IMG/VR virus record: IMGVR_UViG_3300012933_000491
Span: 1-34,830 of that record
From: a virus
Lineage: Duplodnaviria; Caudoviricetes
Length of the DNA: 34,830 nucleotides
Reading direction: 5' to 3' (one strand)
Numbering within the stretch: position 1 is the first letter of the stretch; every line of letters starts with the position of its first letter. The notes below the pieces were generated by a model that searched no databases, was not told the origin of the DNA, and saw nothing but the letters and a program-made list of their open reading frames with translations. Both the position numbers and the translations under genes were made by a program. Below are positions 21,151-33,139 of this stretch, one piece after another.

Positions 21151-21705
21151 TTATTCGCGCTTTAGTAGCGTGTAGGCTGTTTTTGTTGACATGTTTAACG
21201 CGTTTGCTATTTCGTGCATTTTAATGCCTTCTTTTCGCATGATTTTTACTTTATCTGCTAAATGCCATTTGTTTGGGCGCCCTTTAAACGTTCCTGCAGC
21301 AATTGCTGCATCTATTCCCTCGCGTTGTCTTGCGCGTGTTATAGAGCGCTCAAATTCTGCAAATGCGCCCATCATTTGCAATATCATGATAGACATGGGC
21401 GAATCATTTCCGTTAAATACCAGCCCTTCTGTATGAAATACGATTGTAACGCCGTTTTTTATCAGTCCGTCCACGATGTTTTGTAGATCGCGCAAGCTTC
21501 TTGCTAGTCTATCGATGCTATGTATATGCAGCGTGTCGCCTGGACGCAAGTATTTTAAGCACTCTTGTAATCCTTCGCGTTCCGCGCATTTCATAGCCCC
21601 GTAACAGTCTTCAAAAACTTTATCTAACTTTATGTCTTGAAGTTGTCTTAAAGTTGTTTGATCGCTTGTTGAAACGCGTATGTACCCGATTTGTTGATTG
21701 CTCAT
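21151..21705 (-). CDS. Small serine recombinase (resolvase/invertase family)
   Basis: GYIRVSTSDQ with catalytic Ser, LRPGDTL, SIDRLARS, AFAEFER, RQREGI, GRP and C-terminal HTH; start MSNQQ after AAGGA. Confidence 0.93.
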   Translation of the reverse strand: MSNQQIGYIRVSTSDQTTLRQLQDIKLDKVFEDCYGAMKCAEREGLQECLKYLRPGDTLHIHSIDRLARSLRDLQNIVDGLIKNGVTIVFHTEGLVFNGNDSPMSIMILQMMGAFAEFERSITRARQREGIDAAIAAGTFKGRPNKWHLADKVKIMRKEGIKMHEIANALNMSTKTAYTLLKRE

Positions 21706-21878
21706 ATTTTTCCTTATGTAAAAAAGTCTGCCCTTTTTCAAAGCATGTAAAAAAGTGGTTGTTGTAAAATTACAGTGCTATTTTAAGCGCAAAAAGCTAT
21801 TAGAGTTTTAATAATTTTGATTTTAAAAGGGCATACCCGACTACAAAGCCAAATATGCCTTTTTTTGATGCATTACAG

Positions 21879-24868: not shown

Positions 24869-25059
24869 TGAGCAATAACTACGAATACGAAAAGTTAATA
24901 ATAAGCTATATAAGTGATTTACAAAAAGAAATCATGAAGCAATCTGACTGTATAGCAAATTTAAAAAACGAAATTCGGCACATGAATTTAAGTTTTAATA
25001 GTCAAGTTATTGAGCTGTGTCAGAAGTTTAATTTAGATTATTCAATGCATGAATCTTAG
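24868..25059 (+). CDS. Hypothetical coiled-coil protein between terS and terL
   Basis: GTG start overlapping the terS stop; its stop overlaps the terL start. Confidence 0.55.
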   Translation: MSNNYEYEKLIISYISDLQKEIMKQSDCIANLKNEIRHMNLSFNSQVIELCQKFNLDYSMHES

Positions 25060-26611
25060 TCAAGACAAAGAAGAGTTAGCAAGCCAACTCAAAGGATCTC
25101 TTATAGCTTTTACGCAGTTTTTCTATAAGATATTAACGTCACGTGACTTCATTATATCAAACCCACTTGGGCGCGAAAGCCATCAAATCACTATAGCGCG
25201 CGCTTTAAGCCAAGCTTCACGGCTTGAAATTCCTACGCAAAGACTAATGATAAATGTAAGTCCTGGTTCAGGAAAGTCTACGTTGCTGAGCTACTGGACA
25301 GCATGGACTTTAGCGCAATACCCAGATTCACGCTATCTATATATATCTTACTCTAAAGTGCTTGCTGCAAAGCATACTGAAACAATAAAACGAATAATTC
25401 AACTCCCTCATTTTAAATACTTGTTTGATGTATCGATTAGACACGACTCTAAAGCTAAAGAATTTTTTCAAACTACAGCGGGCGGAAGTGTAGCAGCATT
25501 CGGTTCAAGCGGTTCAATTACAGGACAAGATGCAGGATTACCAGGGCTCGATAGATTTTCTGGCGCTTTAATAATAGATGATGCGATTAAGCCCGATGAG
25601 GCGCATTCTGATACAGTTCGAGAAAGTGTTACACTAAATTATAGGGAAACAATACAGCAACGCGGACGCGGTGTAAATGTGCCATATATTTATTTGGGTC
25701 AAAGGGTTCATGAAGCAGATTTGGCAGCTTATTTGCTGGCAGGAAATGATGGATACAAATGGCAGCAAGTAATTATTAAGTCTATAGATGACGCTGGCAA
25801 TGCTATGTATCCCGAAGCTTTTCCACTCGATATGCTAAGACTTAAAGAAAAATATGACCCCTATGTTTTTGCATCCCAGTTTCAACAAAACCCAATTCCA
25901 GCAGGTGGCGCACTCTTTAAACCCGAATGGTTTGTTTTACTGGATGAAGAGCCCGAAATACTCACGACATTTATAACAGCAGATACAGCAGAAACATCTA
26001 AAAGTTATAATGATGCGACAGTATTTAGTTTCTTTGGATTATATGAGATAGAAACAATGGGGCGCAAAACTGGGCAAATGGGATTGCACTGGCTAGATTG
26101 CGTTGAGATACGCATAGAACCCAAAGACCTAAAAGATGCATTCTTAGAGTTTTGGCAATCGTGCATGGTGCATAAAGTACCGCCATTAGTAGCCGCTATA
26201 GAAAAAAAGTCTACAGGCGTCACTTTAGTAAGTGTTTTAGAGGAAATACGTGGGATACAACTTAGAAAAATAGAACGCAATAGGGCTTCAGGAAGTAAAA
26301 CGCAAAGATTTCTAGAAATTCAACCCTATGTTGCAGCCCGACAAATTTCTTTTACAGATAACGCAAGACATCAAGCTATGTGTATTAAACATATGAGTAA
26401 AATAACGGCGAACAATACGCACAGAAACGACGATATAGCAGATACATTAGCAGACGCTATAAAAATAGCGCTCATAGATAAAACGATACAGTATAAAAAA
26501 ACTACACAACATAGCGATACAGCTGCTATACTATTTCAAAATCAAAATGCTTTAAATAACGCAAGGAATGCAGCATATGGCGTACACAACAACCAAGACA
26601 GCGGATACTGA
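25049..26611 (+). CDS. terL: Terminase large subunit
   Basis: PGSGKST Walker A, LIIDD Walker B, QRVHEADL, SQFQQNP, TADTA and NDDIADT nuclease acidic residues. Confidence 0.95.
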   Translation: MNLSQDKEELASQLKGSLIAFTQFFYKILTSRDFIISNPLGRESHQITIARALSQASRLEIPTQRLMINVSPGSGKSTLLSYWTAWTLAQYPDSRYLYISYSKVLAAKHTETIKRIIQLPHFKYLFDVSIRHDSKAKEFFQTTAGGSVAAFGSSGSITGQDAGLPGLDRFSGALIIDDAIKPDEAHSDTVRESVTLNYRETIQQRGRGVNVPYIYLGQRVHEADLAAYLLAGNDGYKWQQVIIKSIDDAGNAMYPEAFPLDMLRLKEKYDPYVFASQFQQNPIPAGGALFKPEWFVLLDEEPEILTTFITADTAETSKSYNDATVFSFFGLYEIETMGRKTGQMGLHWLDCVEIRIEPKDLKDAFLEFWQSCMVHKVPPLVAAIEKKSTGVTLVSVLEEIRGIQLRKIERNRASGSKTQRFLEIQPYVAARQISFTDNARHQAMCIKHMSKITANNTHRNDDIADTLADAIKIALIDKTIQYKKTTQHSDTAAILFQNQNALNNARNAAYGVHNNQDSGY

Positions 26612-28748
26612 TAACTTAGAGCGCATCAAACGCAATGTTTCAGACTCCTGCAAATACTTTAAAGAAAATGTTAAGCGCTGGAGAGACTATAGGACGTATG
26701 TATTTAGAAGCTCGCTCAGTGAAATGCAACGTAATCTTTTACAACAAAATGCGCGACCAATAACGGAATTTAATATACTAGAAGCTTATATTTCAAGACT
26801 ATTGGGCGAGTTTGCAAAGCATGAGCCGAGCATAGAAATAACGCCAAGCGAAGGTTTGCCAATTCCAGCTGAAACCCTTGACGTTGTAGAGGGTCATTTA
26901 CGCCATATAATTTATGAAAGCAATAAAGACTCTTTTGCATACGAAATATACAAGGATTTGTTAAGTGGAGGTTATTCGGTTGCTAAAGTTTGGACAGATT
27001 ACCAAAGCCCCATGAGCTTTAATCAACAAATATTTTTATCGCGCGTATTTGATCCCACAATGGCAGGCTTTGACCCAATGGCGCGTGCACCGCACAAGGG
27101 TGATGGAAAATACAGTTTTGAAATATACCCCATGCTTGAAGAAGACTTTAAGCTAGAATTCCCAAGTGTTGATATGTCAAAGTTTAAATTTACTATGGTA
27201 AGTCAAGGCGGCGGCATTGAAGGGTTTTCATGGTCATACAAAGATTTACAAAATAGAAAATGTATCCTTGTTGCCGACTATTACGAGAAGAAAAGAAAGA
27301 AAGCGCGCATTGTACAGCTTGCAAACGGACGCGTTTTAACTACTAAAGACTATGAAAAGCTACAAGAGTATTGGCAAGAAAATCAGTTCATTGAACAAAT
27401 TCCCGCTGTTATCGGTGAACCACGCTCAACGATACTAGAGCGCGTATGTAGATATAGAATTGTTGAATGCGAAATACTAGACTACTTAGAAACAGATTAT
27501 TGCTATTTGCCCCATGTGTTTTTTGACGGCAATAGTATTATGCTTACACAAGGTACAAGCAACACGCAATTCCAAATGACACGCCCATATGTGTATCACG
27601 CTAAAGGCGTTCAGGATATGACAAACTTTGCAGGGCAAACAATTTGTAATGCTATGGAAAACCTTATACAGCATAAGTTTATTGTGATGAAAGAGGCTAT
27701 TCCGCAAGAGAAAGACTATCTTGAAGCGCTTAATAATATACAAAAAGCCAATACTATTGTTGTTAATGCATATAGCGAACAAAACCCAGATCAGCCCATA
27801 CCAAACCCTATACGCGAGGTTCAAAATGTACCGTTACCGCCTGAAGTAACGGCCGCTTTCCAAATGACTGCCCCAATGACTCAAACAATATTGGGAAGTT
27901 ATGCAAGTAACTTAGGGAAAAATGATAATGATTTATCTGGAAAAGCTATTATTGAATCATCAAGTGTTGGTAATGCTGCTGCTATGCCTTATATTGTCGG
28001 CTATTTGGCAGGATTAACCCAAATTGGTGTTATATGCGTTGACTTAATGCCTAAATATCTTAAGGGCAAACGTACAATTCCGGTTGTGTCTAAAGATGGC
28101 GAGAAAAATCATCAGGGCATTAATCAGCCTCAAATGCCATATCTGGATTATCAAGAGAATGCTATACATGTTAATATTTCTGCTGGTGTTAATTTTCAAG
28201 TCCAAAAGACTCAAAGCATGGCGACTATTGTATCGCTTATGCAAGCGTCTCAGGAATTTGCGGAGTTTATGAACTCGCCCGCAGGCCTTCCAATACTGCT
28301 TGATAATATAGAATGCTATGGATCGGACAGATTACGGGAAGCGTCCACGCAATGGATGCAACAAAAACAACAGCAGCAAGCGCAAATGCAGCAGATGCAA
28401 CAGCAAGCGCAGCAAAGTGACCCTGCTTTTATTCGTGCACAAGCAGAAATACAAAAAGTACAGAATACCGCTGAAAAAAATAAGGTTGATGCACAGCTAG
28501 CAATAGCGCAATTAGCTATTGACAAAGAAAAGGCGGATGCTGATATACTCTTAGCAGAGGCACGCGTTAATCAAGCGCAAATAGACTCTGCGGTTAAACT
28601 TGAAGAATCTAATACAAGTTTACATAGGCATGCGCTAGACTCGGCTACAAAGCTTGCAGAAATACAAAGCCGCGAACATCGCGACCATTTAGCAACGCAT
28701 GAATTGCATCATCAAATACAACAAGCACAACAAAAAATTGAAGAGTAA
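26577..28748 (+). CDS. P22-like portal protein
   Basis: ~720 aa directly after TerL; FDP repeats, SGKAI motif and a Gln-rich C-terminal helical barrel. Confidence 0.9.
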   Translation: MAYTTTKTADTDNLERIKRNVSDSCKYFKENVKRWRDYRTYVFRSSLSEMQRNLLQQNARPITEFNILEAYISRLLGEFAKHEPSIEITPSEGLPIPAETLDVVEGHLRHIIYESNKDSFAYEIYKDLLSGGYSVAKVWTDYQSPMSFNQQIFLSRVFDPTMAGFDPMARAPHKGDGKYSFEIYPMLEEDFKLEFPSVDMSKFKFTMVSQGGGIEGFSWSYKDLQNRKCILVADYYEKKRKKARIVQLANGRVLTTKDYEKLQEYWQENQFIEQIPAVIGEPRSTILERVCRYRIVECEILDYLETDYCYLPHVFFDGNSIMLTQGTSNTQFQMTRPYVYHAKGVQDMTNFAGQTICNAMENLIQHKFIVMKEAIPQEKDYLEALNNIQKANTIVVNAYSEQNPDQPIPNPIREVQNVPLPPEVTAAFQMTAPMTQTILGSYASNLGKNDNDLSGKAIIESSSVGNAAAMPYIVGYLAGLTQIGVICVDLMPKYLKGKRTIPVVSKDGEKNHQGINQPQMPYLDYQENAIHVNISAGVNFQVQKTQSMATIVSLMQASQEFAEFMNSPAGLPILLDNIECYGSDRLREASTQWMQQKQQQQAQMQQMQQQAQQSDPAFIRAQAEIQKVQNTAEKNKVDAQLAIAQLAIDKEKADADILLAEARVNQAQIDSAVKLEESNTSLHRHALDSATKLAEIQSREHRDHLATHELHHQIQQAQQKIEE

Positions 28749-28795
28749 CACGGAGCTTGGATAGGATTGTTAACTTAAAATGGAGAAGGGATTGC

Positions 28796-28972
28796 ATGAA
28801 CAAGTATAAACTAACAGACCAGTTGCTAGATACACGTAGCAACATACATAAACTTGAGCGCGATGGCTTTGACAGAAGACAAATTATAGATTTCATGTAT
28901 AAAGCAACATCGGGCGTATCACAACAAGAACGCACCAAAATAATAGAGAGGCTTTATGATAGAAAAGAATGA
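28796..28972 (+). CDS. Hypothetical protein
   Basis: MNKYKLT... after AAGGGA. Confidence 0.6.
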   Translation: MNKYKLTDQLLDTRSNIHKLERDGFDRRQIIDFMYKATSGVSQQERTKIIERLYDRKE

Positions 28973-29096
28973 TTTTTTAGATGATGATGACGAGTTAATG
29001 AAAATCGAAGAGCTTGTTCAAGAGTATGCGTTAGACAAAGACTTGGCGCCTTGGCATAAACCAAATATATATTGGGACTTGTTTTCAAATGAATAA
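28956..29096 (+). CDS. Small acidic hypothetical protein (46 aa, not in ORF track)
   Basis: MIEKNDFLDDDDELMKIEE...; GAGG RBS; overlaps both neighbours. Confidence 0.5.
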   Translation: MIEKNDFLDDDDELMKIEELVQEYALDKDLAPWHKPNIYWDLFSNE

Positions 29097-29403
29097 AGCA
29101 ATTGAGTTATTGAATGAAATATTTAATATAGATGATTTTTATGCGCATTTAAATGCGCATACTAAAAAAATAAAATGTATCATGTTAAATAATAAACAAA
29201 ATAGATCGCTTTTAATGAACGCCATTTTTATTACAAGCGCAATTGCATGCTCTATTGATTCGTTGCACGAAATAACAGACTCAATTGCTGAAGAATCGCC
29301 TATTGATGGTAATGACTTGCGAAGAATATGCGTAGATATGGATGAAATAGATAAAATGATTAAAATTTTTGAAGAAAAAGCGCAAAAATGCGGGGGATTT
29401 TAA
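29089..29403 (+). CDS. Hypothetical protein
   Basis: 104 aa ORF in a coupled run of genes. Confidence 0.6.
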   Translation: MNKAIELLNEIFNIDDFYAHLNAHTKKIKCIMLNNKQNRSLLMNAIFITSAIACSIDSLHEITDSIAEESPIDGNDLRRICVDMDEIDKMIKIFEEKAQKCGGF

Positions 29404-29405
29404 AG

Positions 29406-30167
29406 ATGCCGTTAAAAAAAGGAAAATCCAAGAAGGTTGTTTCTGAGAATATATCCGAGTTGGTACATTAATTGTTTATTAGCCTTGGCAAATATGTTTT
29501 TGATGCTCAAGGCTATGACAGTTGGGGCATAAAACTTCTAGATTATCAATCAAATTGTTATTTCTGTTTCTATCCTTATGATGTACGCCTAATATCTTAA
29601 CGCATTCTGAATACTTGCATCTATTGCATTCATTAATCATCCCTCTTCTTATCATTGATTTTCTTATACTTAAAAAGCTAACTTTATTTATGTCTGATCT
29701 TTTAGAAATAGAATTACATTCCATTGAACAATATATTCTTTCTTTGGATGGCGATGATAAAAATATTTTATTGCAAATTAAACAAGTAAATTCTTTTGTT
29801 CCTTTTCCCTTCGATGATTTATAATAACATTTTCTTGAACAATATTTTGCTGTATTCGATCTAGATGAAATGTGCTCGAATTCTATATTGCATATTCCGC
29901 AATTTTTTTTTAAAGTAACCCTATTGTATAAAGCAAGACATGATCTTGAACAAAATTTAAATTTTTCTATTCTATTCTTTGGTATATAGCGTTGCAACTT
30001 GCAATTTAAACATTCAAGAACTTTTCCGGTTAATTCTTTAGGCATAAAATTAATCCAATTTAAAAACCATAACAAACAATATAATGTATTTTTAAAAATA
30101 AAATAATACTCAAAATCAAGCAATAGCCATAGCACTTAGTAAAGCTGGTAAGTCCAAAAAGAAATAA
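29406..30167 (+). pseudogene. Small basic phage gene interrupted by an HNH cassette
   Basis: 5' half MPLKKGKSKKVVSENISELVH* (29406-29471); 3' half (T)QNQAIAIALSKAGKSKKK* (~30108-30167). Confidence 0.8.
29479..30045 (-). CDS. HNH homing endonuclease with three Zn-finger repeats
   Basis: Three CxxC...(F/Y)CSxxC units and a C-terminal CNRC...VHHKDRNRNNNLIDNLEVLCPNCHSLEH; likely start MPKEL at 30045. Confidence 0.92.
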   Translation of the reverse strand: MPKELTGKVLECLNCKLQRYIPKNRIEKFKFCSRSCLALYNRVTLKKNCGICNIEFEHISSRSNTAKYCSRKCYYKSSKGKGTKEFTCLICNKIFLSSPSKERIYCSMECNSISKRSDINKVSFLSIRKSMIRRGMINECNRCKYSECVKILGVHHKDRNRNNNLIDNLEVLCPNCHSLEHQKHICQG

Positions 30168-30281
30168 GGTAAAAACCACTCGAAATCTAGTAACTATATG
30201 TTATGATTGTCAATTCTATTTGCATAACCTCTTTGTAGGATTTTCAAATAAGAGTCTTGTCCTATTGTTATTTTGTTACCT

Positions 30282-30317
30282 GAGGTTTCCACCGCAGATG
30301 GAAACCTCTTCATTTTT
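30282..30317 (+). terminator. Intrinsic terminator-like hairpin
   Basis: GAGGTTTCCA-ccgcaga-TGGAAACCTC followed by TTCATTTTT. Confidence 0.65.
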
Positions 30318-30396
30318 AACTACTCAGTGAATCAACCAAGGTTCAAAACTTCGTGACTATTAAATCTTGTATGATCAATCGTTAGCTTTTTAAAGT

Positions 30397-30624
30397 TTAA
30401 ATCAAATGAAAGGCTTTAACCGCTACAGCTACCAACAATAAAAAATTAAATCCTATTATTGCACCAATTAACCATTTAAATTGTGAATTTACGATTATTT
30501 TTATTTCTTTTATATCGCTTCTTATATCTGTTAACGTGTTTTCTATATCCAATAATGACATTTGCACAAGAGCTAACCGTGTTTCTTTGCTGCACACGAT
30601 ATCAATAGGTTTTATTTGTTCCAC
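30397..30624 (-). CDS. Coiled-coil + C-terminal TM protein (XhlA-like), paralogue 4
   Basis: GTG start; KETRLALVQMS...SQFKWLIGAIIG...KAFHLI. Confidence 0.72.
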   Translation of the reverse strand: MEQIKPIDIVCSKETRLALVQMSLLDIENTLTDIRSDIKEIKIIVNSQFKWLIGAIIGFNFLLLVAVAVKAFHLI

Positions 30625-30727
30625 ATATACCCCAGCTTTATAACCGAAATTAAAAAACGCAAATTAGAACTATTTCAAAAGTTACCTTAAATTTGCATTC
30701 ATATTATAACACCACTTGTCAAATTTC

Positions 30728-30809
30728 ATGGGGGACCCCCACTATTAAAAAAAACATTTTCCATTATTAAAATCCTTATGCAGCAAGGGTTAAAGTGGGG
30801 GACCCCCAT
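30728..30809. repeat. Two copies of the near-palindrome TGGGGGACCCCCA
   Basis: At 30729-30741 and 30796-30808, 67 bp apart. Confidence 0.9.
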
Positions 30810-30824
30810 TACTTGTTTATTTTT

Positions 30825-30918
30825 TTTAAATAGGCATTAAAAGCGTTAAGCGCGTATTAAAAGCGTTAAACGCGTGTTAACGGCGTATTAAACGCGTATT
30901 AAAGATTTAAATAGGCAT
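30825..30918. repeat. Array of 9-11 bp GCGT(A)TTAA units flanked by 13-bp direct repeats
   Basis: Units start at 30834, 30843, 30852, 30863, 30872, 30883 and 30894; TTTAAATAGGCAT at 30825 and 30906. Confidence 0.85.
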
Positions 30919-30920
30919 AG

Positions 30921-30949
30921 TTGTATTTATCTACAAATTGCCTTATCAT
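30921..30949 (+). promoter_or_regulatory. Putative sigma70 promoter for scaffold/coat operon
   Basis: TTGTAT-17-TATCAT. Confidence 0.6.
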
Positions 30950-31052
30950 GTAACCTTACGTCGTCAAACGGAAATCTGGCCGCGTCTTCACAGCGTTATT
31001 GTGATGCTCATTACGGTGACACCGCTCTATAAGTCAAAAAGAGGGATTAGGA

Positions 31053-31742
31053 ATGACTGAAGATTTAGCAGAAACTGAATTACAGGATATGCCTTTGGAA
31101 GAGGCTGAGAGTGAAACCGTTGATGATGAATATCAAACCCCTGTGTACAACAAGATACAGGTTCAAGATGTAGTCAAACGCGAAAAACAGAAAGCTTACG
31201 AAAAAGGACGGAGAGCAGCTATGATGGAATTACAACAAGAACAGCAACCACAATCATTAGGTGGAATGTCAGCTCCTTCACGAGAAGAAATCCAAAGATT
31301 GATTGCGGAACAAGCGCCACAATTGTTGCAAGACCATGTTAACGAGATGCAAGCCAAACACACGGTAAACTCTTTCGTTAGCAAGATGGAAGCCGCTGAA
31401 CAAAAATACCCTGGAATTCAAGAAAAGCTTAATGAGTTGGATTACAATACCATTACGCCTCTTATAAAGATGGCGAATGATATGGAAAACACTGGCGATA
31501 TAGTTAACGAGTTGATAACAAACCCCATGAAAATGGGTAATTTATTAGCGTTACTGTATGCTCAGCCTAAGATGGCACAGAGGGCAATGAATGACCTTTC
31601 GCAATCTATCAAGGTAAACGAGGACGCCAAGACTCAAGCGGCTGCTGCAAAAGACCCTATGTCACAACTAAAACCTTCACAAAATGCCGGAATGGATAAT
31701 GGCAATATGTCGGTTAGTGACTTTAGAAAAATGTTTAGGTAA
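31053..31742 (+). CDS. Scaffolding protein
   Basis: Acidic N-terminus, helical body and basic C-terminal SVSDFRKMFR; directly upstream of the coat gene. Confidence 0.75.
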   Translation: MTEDLAETELQDMPLEEAESETVDDEYQTPVYNKIQVQDVVKREKQKAYEKGRRAAMMELQQEQQPQSLGGMSAPSREEIQRLIAEQAPQLLQDHVNEMQAKHTVNSFVSKMEAAEQKYPGIQEKLNELDYNTITPLIKMANDMENTGDIVNELITNPMKMGNLLALLYAQPKMAQRAMNDLSQSIKVNEDAKTQAAAAKDPMSQLKPSQNAGMDNGNMSVSDFRKMFR

Positions 31743-31816
31743 ATGTAACCTAAATCTATAATCTAACCGCCACAGTGACACCATTCCAAAAATAAACATT
31801 TTTTGGAGCGACTACT

Positions 31817-33139
31817 ATGGCAGTACCAACAAATATTTTACAAACCGTCCAGACATACCAAAAAGCAGAGCTGGCATGGTTACTTAATACCTTCGTAGGC
31901 ATAAGCACTGCGAACAAAAAATTTGAGAAGTTTAATGATTTAACGGCTAACCTTGGCGACACCGTTAACTTTGACTTATCCCCTAGATATCAAAGCTACT
32001 CAGGTTTAGTTATTACCCAACAGCCTTCCACTCAACGCTTACAAGCTTTAACTTGCTCACAAGCCGCTAACGTATCCTCTGGATTTACAGCGCAACAATT
32101 TATATTAAACGTTCGTGATTACATGGATCGTTTCGGTATGGCTGCAATGAAAGAATTAGGCACCTCTATTGAATTAGATATGCTTAAGAATATCGTTTCA
32201 GGTGTTGTTGTTAACGACCCACAAAACGCTAATTTCGGTTCTTTACAAACTAATAGTGGCCCTTTCCGTTTCTATGGCAATGGCGTTACACCTATTAACT
32301 CATTTACTCAGTTAGCCCAAGCTGTTGCAAACTTTGATGATTTTGGTGCATCTACTCATAAAAAAATGGCAATGCTACCTGTTACCGCTATTCCCGCTAT
32401 TGTTGGTACTGGTTTAAACCAATTTGCAATGCGTAGAAACGATGAAACTGCAATGAAATGGGAATTGGGCGATTTTGCTGAAACCACTTGGCATGAATCT
32501 AACTTACTGCCTTTACACGTTTCTGGAACTATCGGTAATGCCGCTTCTCCTAACAACGTAATGACTGTAGTTAGCACAAATGATCCTACTGGCGCTAACA
32601 TTACTCAGATTACTTTCACTGAACCTACTGGCAGCACAGACACTAACGCGGTTAAAGCAGGTGATTTGTTCCAGTTTAATGACGGCGTTTCAGGCAAGCC
32701 TAACATGCGTTTCTTGACCTTTATTGGACGTGCTCCAAGTCAACAAAGCGTACAGTTTAGAGCAACTGCTAATGCTGCAACTGTTGCAGGAACTGTGACT
32801 GTAAGCGTTCAAACCATTAACGGCGTAGGTTTGGTTTCTGCTGCAAATGCAAATCAAAACATCAATAACGCGGTTGTTGCTGGAATGACTGTAACACCTT
32901 TACCCAGTCATAGAGCAGGTTTGTTAGAATCAGGCGATCCTTTCTATTTAGCAATGCCAAGGCTCCCAGATTACTCGCCTTTCGTATCTTCCATAATGAC
33001 CGATCCAGACAGTGGTGCAAGTATTCGCCATTACTACGGTAACCAATTTGGTCTAAACAACCAAGCTTATGTTCGTGATGCCATTTGGGGATCAACGCTT
33101 GTCAGTGAAAACTGCATGCGCCTTATATTCCCTATGTAA
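31817..33139 (+). CDS. Major capsid protein (P22 coat-like)
   Basis: 440 aa with NLGDTVNFDLSPRY, an I-domain-like KAGDLFQF, LAMPRLP and RDAIWG; GGAG RBS. Confidence 0.9.
   Translation: MAVPTNILQTVQTYQKAELAWLLNTFVGISTANKKFEKFNDLTANLGDTVNFDLSPRYQSYSGLVITQQPSTQRLQALTCSQAANVSSGFTAQQFILNVRDYMDRFGMAAMKELGTSIELDMLKNIVSGVVVNDPQNANFGSLQTNSGPFRFYGNGVTPINSFTQLAQAVANFDDFGASTHKKMAMLPVTAIPAIVGTGLNQFAMRRNDETAMKWELGDFAETTWHESNLLPLHVSGTIGNAASPNNVMTVVSTNDPTGANITQITFTEPTGSTDTNAVKAGDLFQFNDGVSGKPNMRFLTFIGRAPSQQSVQFRATANAATVAGTVTVSVQTINGVGLVSAANANQNINNAVVAGMTVTPLPSHRAGLLESGDPFYLAMPRLPDYSPFVSSIMTDPDSGASIRHYYGNQFGLNNQAYVRDAIWGSTLVSENCMRLIFPM

Follow-up and report, generated by a model that had tools for sequence, protein, structure and literature searches.

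The window, the whole 34.8-kb linear record analysed here, belongs to a P22-like podophage and is about 92% complete. It encodes a terminase (25049-26611), a portal protein (26568-28748) and a major head protein (31817-33139), and the gene at 31053-31742 is presumed from its position to encode the scaffold. Between the portal gene and the presumed scaffold gene lies a small basic gene of the phrog_2423 family that is split by an insert. The first half of this gene (29406-29468, plus strand, MPLKK...ELVH) comprises codons 1-21, matches positions 1-20 of the 52-position family (E 6.5e-8) and is now cut off by a TAA at 29469-29471 that comes from the insert. The second half (30111-30167, plus strand) comprises codons 26-43, matches positions 26-43 (E 1.3e-4) and terminates at a TAA at 30165-30167; it is without an open start, the sole in-frame ATG upstream of it (30084) being followed by two TAA codons (30093 and 30099). 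The ends of the reading frames and the family matches to both parts confirm that these are two halves of one gene, as the earlier note on this DNA had proposed. No second phrog_2423 gene copy was found elsewhere in this 92% complete contig. The spacer downstream of the small gene (30173-30330 and 30282-30308) contains a terminator-like hairpin and varies among close relatives, with 156 nt missing in one run (X1) and other sequence in another (X3). Further downstream, at 30728-30811 and 30825-30908, the DNA upstream of the scaffold gene contains a G+C-rich palindromic pair, in which GGGGGACCCCC occurs twice at a distance of 67 nt, as well as a 20-22-nt repeat present in five overlapping copies; these may constitute an origin or a regulatory array.

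The insert comprises 641 nt (29468-30108, with 1 nt of uncertainty in the boundary) and has a G+C content of 26%, compared with 37% for the contig. It contains an intact antisense gene (29479-30045, minus strand, ATG at 30045 and stop at 29479) whose 188-aa product matches the HNH endonuclease family phrog_1271 (E 2e-19); matches to the Pfam families HNH and HNH_3 fall under the curated cut-off. The protein features four CxxC/CSxxC zinc-finger-like repeats followed by a Cys-type HNH domain. It has 375 homologues at E <= 0.001, and in an alignment with 39 of the best of them (40 sequences) H155, H156, N163, N168, C173, C176, H177 and H181 are invariant and present in the window's protein, which keeps all invariant positions among the nuclease His, Asn and Cys residues and the four zinc-finger-like repeats. 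The AlphaFold model is locally confident (pLDDT 90.6, pTM 0.51). A fold search with this model returned nothing at E <= 0.001, the best match being weak (E 0.07, a Geobacter HNH nicking enzyme), with HNH nucleases among the matches. A single-sequence scan of viral contigs detected no relatives of the nuclease, whereas an alignment-based scan did retrieve them; none was found among annotated phage records at E 1e-8. The nuclease domain is thus of the homing-endonuclease class with intact catalytic residues, and its gene is not surrounded by an intron or intein. A clear promoter for the gene was not found, a sigma-70 scan giving 5 sites against 7.3 expected. Within the insert, the reading frame is flanked by 10 nt on the left and by 63 nt on the right, the latter being a decayed coding copy. 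Apart from the antisense HNH gene, the insert is thus not plain non-coding DNA but largely a decayed copy of part of the target.

A scan with the scaffold protein retrieved seven relatives, and the search for uninterrupted alleles and exact boundaries that had been proposed earlier succeeded among them. The whole 43-codon phrog_2423 gene is present in L085, whose flanks are 92-95% identical to the window. By BLAST, window positions 27646-29467 correspond to L085 2-1823 and positions 30109-33000 to L085 1835-4703, which fixes the insert at 29468-30108, where 641 nt replace 11 nt of the L085-type allele (the end of His21, Ser-Gly-Lys and the first base of Pro25). Empty alleles also occur in L086, L088 and L090, the sequences of L084 and L089 stop short of the small-gene slot, and in L087 (1827-2036) an unrelated 69-aa small basic protein occupies the slot after the portal gene. 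This replacement suggests that the phrog_2423 gene may be accessory. Four runs (X1-X4, of 20 listed) were examined as contigs, in which rare forms are invisible. The filled allele is found in X1 and X2, where the right junction is crossed and both TAA codons are kept, X2 crossing the left junction by only 16 nt; X3 contains an empty joint, and X4 contains HNH pieces that are about 2% diverged plus an empty joint, the joint in both leading from 29468 to 30109. As judged from L085 and the runs, the cassette occupies this site in some closely related phages and is missing from it in others. The window differs from L085 at six positions in the first half and four in the second, all of them synonymous, with one further change at junction codon 25, and X2 carries none of the listed differences within its first half. 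Such purely synonymous differences would be compatible with a recent insertion and also with continued use.

The 68 nt at 30043-30110 (plus strand) align in register with target codons 1-25 (profile P = 0.0002). For codons 10-25, none of 5000 shuffles scores as high, and codons 1-9 give no profile signal without a gap. The PHROG profile of phrog_2423, which is independent, also aligns across this segment at positions 10-47. With one gap, 44 of the 68 bases are identical to the live copy of L059, compared with 32 of 68 for the empty allele. Since these 68 nt repeat the first half of the gene in decayed form, the target sequence is duplicated after all, contrary to the earlier statement that there was no clear target duplication. 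Decay is evident in the change of the ATG of a shared CATG to ATA, the loss of about 8 nt and the TAA codons at 30093 and 30099. In the window, the carried copy therefore does not fuse in frame to keep the gene open, as it does in 75 of 81 clusters of relatives. In a tree of the nucleases (FastTree, 88 rows, rooted on three distant HNHs), the window's protein falls in a clade of nine (support 0.98) whose other eight members have the target restored, as have all members other than the window in a wider clade of 57 (support 0.87), so the decay in the window is derived. Moreover, the copy is far more decayed than flanks of 92-95% identity allow, which suggests that the replacement was probably dead before the element inserted in this phage.

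The layout of the family was surveyed in viral loci (the best 80 of 498 confirmed by an alignment search) and in metagenome loci (the best 80 of 353, overlapping with the viral set), with clusters defined at 85% HNH identity. All 80 viral loci have an intact phrog_2423 gene that runs opposite to the HNH gene and begins at its start or close by, and so do 62 of the 75 metagenome loci with room for it, five having no room. Counted by clusters, 75 of 81 are arranged head-to-head with an intact target gene, as scored with a profile that was built from the HNH-adjoining genes themselves; these genes had first been found by outside queries, plus a plain pattern (73/76). One CATG is common to both start codons in 41 of 75. 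Beyond the HNH stop, a remnant of the old start is recognizable in 25 of 80 clusters, compared with 17 of 587 control windows, for which the pattern was slightly stricter. These remnants extend from 2 codons up to 21-25, their ends being placed at about codon 21-22 or before and none going past the Gly23 codon, and are 38-69% identical to the new start over the first 31-45 nt (11 pairs). The remnant in the window is among the longest of the family and ends cleanly at a TAA.

Of the six clusters without a match, L154 and L157 possess this duplication too, though on distant homologues of the target, altered forms of the layout occur in L149 and L151, and nothing was seen in L160. In L164, as well as in L162, which lies under the score filter, a different gene adjoins the HNH, and the duplication is plain in L162. 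Since the replacement-start layout occurs on a different gene in L162 and L164, the strategy extends beyond a single target gene. The L162 target starts MPNA, and its old start survives as a 10-codon remnant beyond the HNH stop. A second solution, as read by eye, is found in L155, L143 and L137: upstream of the HNH start lies a non-coding spacer with an antisense TG-N-TATAAT, followed by a stranded KQVVAIA-like second-half remnant and then by an entire new small gene that has a ribosome site of its own. In L165 (494-892) and L167, a frameshifted or truncated HNH adjoins an intact target gene; decay of the nuclease beside an intact target is the usual route, and the decay in the window is the opposite. 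More distant HNH relatives (L168, L169 and L170) lie among tRNA-like sequences and not beside the small gene (by eye).

The very tight linkage, the overlapping start codons and the location among head genes could also be read as signs that the HNH protein, instead of being selfish, works together with the small basic protein, for instance during packaging. This reading is improbable. Among target-gene loci (the best 80 of 579, from 3 of 64 collection parts), only 2 of 80 carry the HNH and 78 do not, so dependence is one-sided, of the nuclease on its target. Furthermore, the HNH gene is gained or lost between phages that are 92-95% identical, is antisense to the late genes and is accompanied by old-start remnants; in the window it breaks its supposed partner, and in L162 and L164 the same duplication is applied to a different gene.

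Codon composition points to a separate origin of the carried half. Raw G+C of the first half was discarded as a test because it is biased by lysine codons, and GC3 was compared with that of HNH-free genes instead. In hosts of at least 50% G+C (32 vs 32), GC3 of the first half is 0.39 in HNH-linked genes and 0.62 in free ones (p = 2e-7), whereas that of the second half is 0.56 and 0.59, respectively (p = 0.57). By this measure, the carried first half is foreign to the host gene. Gly23 is present in 76 of 78 free alleles but in only 5 of 70 HNH-linked alleles, which are related loci and not independent events, and in 4 of 17 linked alleles matched for similarity. Because the first free set had been ranked by a Gly-bearing query, the scan was repeated with a query lacking Gly, and the residue was found in 72 of 78 free alleles, the two scans overlapping. 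The 11 nt deleted in the window include the Gly23 codon. Given that 5 of the 70 linked alleles retain Gly23, its replacement cannot be the sole protection. Five HNH-free alleles (L253, L254, L255, L316 and L320, at 1001-1130) have element-type first halves, with EKYP or EDFP for SGKP, and are possibly scars left after loss of the nuclease gene. A promoter or ribosome site embedded in the carried halves was also considered; the antisense promoter score is 7.66 against 7.05 for codon shuffles, with no fixed position, and the antisense ribosome-site motif occurs in 17 of 75 against 12 of 78, on which grounds neither kind of site is claimed.

Taken together, the insert is probably a free-standing HNH homing cassette on the phrog_2423 gene, whose replacement first half is live in relatives and decayed here, leaving the target likely dead. 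The solution adopted by the family operates at the DNA level: the element brings a replacement first half of the target gene. We infer from the allele comparisons that the cut site lies near codons 21-25, where the nuclease is predicted to cut or nick empty alleles. Repair off a filled genome would then copy the cassette in, with the conserved QAVAIA codons serving as the right homology arm and the old start as the left arm. The normal outcome would be an old-start remnant, a backwards HNH gene, and a new start joined to the second half of the host gene. The carried half would escape cutting because the conserved Gly23 codon is swapped, a putative immunity by recoding. In the present phage, the replacement would have died before the cassette entered, and the cassette could still have spread because the small gene would be dispensable here. 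With the replacement start dead in the window, the small gene is likely lost. The earlier proposal of a minimal mobile HNH element whose effect is just to inactivate the gene agrees with the insertion, the intact HNH and the decayed copy.

A variant of the homing cassette in which the gene is not lost would require the 21-residue first half to be translated and either to suffice or to work as a piece, like the split NrdA of phage Aeh1, leaving the replacement free to decay. The length of the remnant and its clean TAA are in keeping with this variant, as are the six synonymous differences from L085 and the lack of listed differences within the remnant in X2. It is nevertheless unlikely: the second half lacks an open start yet contains the most conserved residues of the target (P25, Q28 and A31-A33), the whole gene is restored in 75 of 81 clusters, and the remnant bears no added tails of the Aeh1 NrdA type.

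An imperfect inverted repeat had been noted at the ends of the insert. The two arms (29464-29481 and 30070-30088, both given on the plus strand, the right one over codons 12-18 of the decayed copy) exist letter for letter as the earlier note had written them, with 17 of 19 positions complementary, yet the complementarity does not exceed chance convincingly. The local alignment score of 14 has P values of 0.046, 0.050 and 0.058 (3000 dinucleotide shuffles, three window sizes) in a test picked after the match had been seen; of 1100 random AT-rich pairs drawn from this contig, 1.1% reach as high a score. The expectation that related elements would have terminal stems was not borne out: among loci that passed the filters (139 of 161, with an HNH score of at least 150 bits and enough flank), end complementarity at p <= 0.05 is found in 2 of 82 HNH clusters including the window, fewer than chance alone would give (4). 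The right arm stops at 30088, short by 20 nt of the element end at 30108, and is separated from the second half by the TAA codons at 30093 and 30099, so position decides against a role of the stem, which is likely a product of chance.

It had also been proposed that, with the aid of this stem, the insert is excised from the transcript or bypassed in translation, yielding a joined peptide. Several features are in line with such skipping, including the stop directly after the last sense codon, the synonymous-only differences of both halves from L085, and the arms themselves, whose plus-strand duplex amounts to -9.8 kcal/mol with a mean ensemble pairing of 0.35 and values up to 0.47. However, the pairing is absent from the minimum-energy and centroid structures, the insert region folds worse than 19 of 20 shuffles, and the stem, with P about 0.05, is not conserved in the family. 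Of all joins, 82 open the frame; every one of them begins at or beyond 30100, and the stem base provides no such join. No landing codon matching any of the last four sense codons follows the last in-frame stop, across a gap of over 630 nt, and the matched take-off and landing codons round a short gap that characterize gene 60-type bypass are accordingly missing. Neither a ribozyme core nor frame-restoring boundaries of group I or II introns are present; the Rfam search of the window gave nothing above the gathering score, three chance-level matches and no intron family, which bears out the earlier remark that there is no such core. A candidate junction with TAATTG after the exon, which we take to resemble the group I junction of the T4 td intron, was dropped, as no G that could form the intron end occurs between 30087 and 30119. 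Because 11 nt of the target are deleted, clean excision could not return the native gene, and the spacer is accounted for as a decayed coding copy. Removal or bypass at the RNA level is thus very unlikely. The related scenario, in which a lineage without the DNA repair module keeps the gene by looping out, through bypass or ribozyme-free excision of a 630-nt insert, is equally hard to credit; if true, the insert would be an intervening sequence of a new kind, seen as it first arises.

Least probable, to the point of being scarcely tenable, is the inversion of the segment between the arms by a recombinase, toggling the HNH gene on and off. The arms are inverted and flank the HNH gene, and the contig encodes a serine recombinase (a resolvase with HTH_7, 21151-21741, minus strand) for which no link to the insert was found. 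Against this, the arms are imperfect and unconserved, the element boundaries lack the conserved inverted repeats of an IS or invertible segment, and the orientation of the HNH is constant in the family. No strand-changing joint was seen in the four runs, whose contigs drop rare forms, and, by reading of the sequence, flipping would not reopen the small gene.

The closest parallels to the homing cassette are known from fungal mitochondria and from other phages. Mobile open reading frames (mORFs) of fungal mitochondria carry a foreign gene end, as described for atp6 of Allomyces macrogynus and for atp6, atp9, cox2 and nad3 of Glomus sp. (PMC3630166, PMC4019555). Both systems have in common an intron-free endonuclease inside the target, a diverged foreign copy of one gene end and a stranded native end. 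The phage family duplicates a gene end around the endonuclease gene as mORFs do, but it is the 5' end (25 of 80 clusters, with both copies in the window), and the foreign character of the carried copy is seen in the GC3 shift confined to the first half and in the closer resemblance of the window's copy to L059 than to the empty allele. In the mORFs, the 3' end is carried and the enzymes are of the LAGLIDADG or GIY-YIG type; the phage family is their mirror image, with the 5' half replaced, an antisense Zn-finger/HNH enzyme and overlapping start codons. The window further differs from them in that its carried copy is dead.

Among phages, MobA in genes 39/60 of T4-like phages, as described in a preprint (bioRxiv 10.1101/2022.08.31.505936), is an HNH cassette that deletes part of its target and adds a diverged homR behind a new start. 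It resembles the present family in being a phage HNH cassette within a gene, with a target deletion and a diverged homologous replacement behind a new start. With MobA, the gene ends up as two functional pieces that have acquired tails, and there is a bypass cassette of 50 nt with matched codons; in the phrog_2423-linked family, a new start makes the gene whole again as a single unit, and bypass signals are absent. The Seg and Mob enzymes of T4, which perform intronless homing, are encoded between genes and cleave at a distance of hundreds of bases (PMC2988022, PMC13565253); like them, the present nuclease gene is optional, intron-free and tied to one conserved target gene, but unlike them, its insertion site and putative cut site coincide. 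An optional intron-free nuclease tied to a conserved target is likewise the trait shared with mobE in nrdA of Aeh1, where the split gene is kept working through protein tails (PMC3045599), whereas the phrog_2423-linked family achieves rescue by a replacement start. No such replacement-start layout was seen in PMC10448857, and a literature search whose scope ended short of subscription papers and supplements yielded no account of this HNH family or of a phage 5'-replacement layout.

The main result is the family itself: a large set of compact nucleases of about 190 aa with zinc fingers and an HNH domain, which are tied to a tiny, very common phage gene and spare their target without an intron or intein by carrying a recoded first half. 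This extends to phages a strategy described in fungal mitochondria and offers a sharply predicted target site, codons 21-25, for which empty and filled alleles are available as matched pairs. Caution is needed with trees and annotations of these target genes, the genes being chimeric. In addition, the window would serve as a naturally occurring knock-out for this small protein family, whose function is not assigned. The phrog_2423 motif is found in about 14,000 stored viral stretches, and Pfam searches of family members returned only DUF6496 (1 of 14, E 0.006). A solved relative of the small protein was not found, and a literature search for 'MPLKKG' retrieved no paper. In several loci (L004, L006, L064, L020 and L003), the phrog_2423 peptide often forms the N-terminal module of proteins of 180-200 aa, and annotated phage matches adjoin or are fused with NUDIX hydrolases, which hints that the peptide may serve as a targeting or packaging tag within longer proteins.
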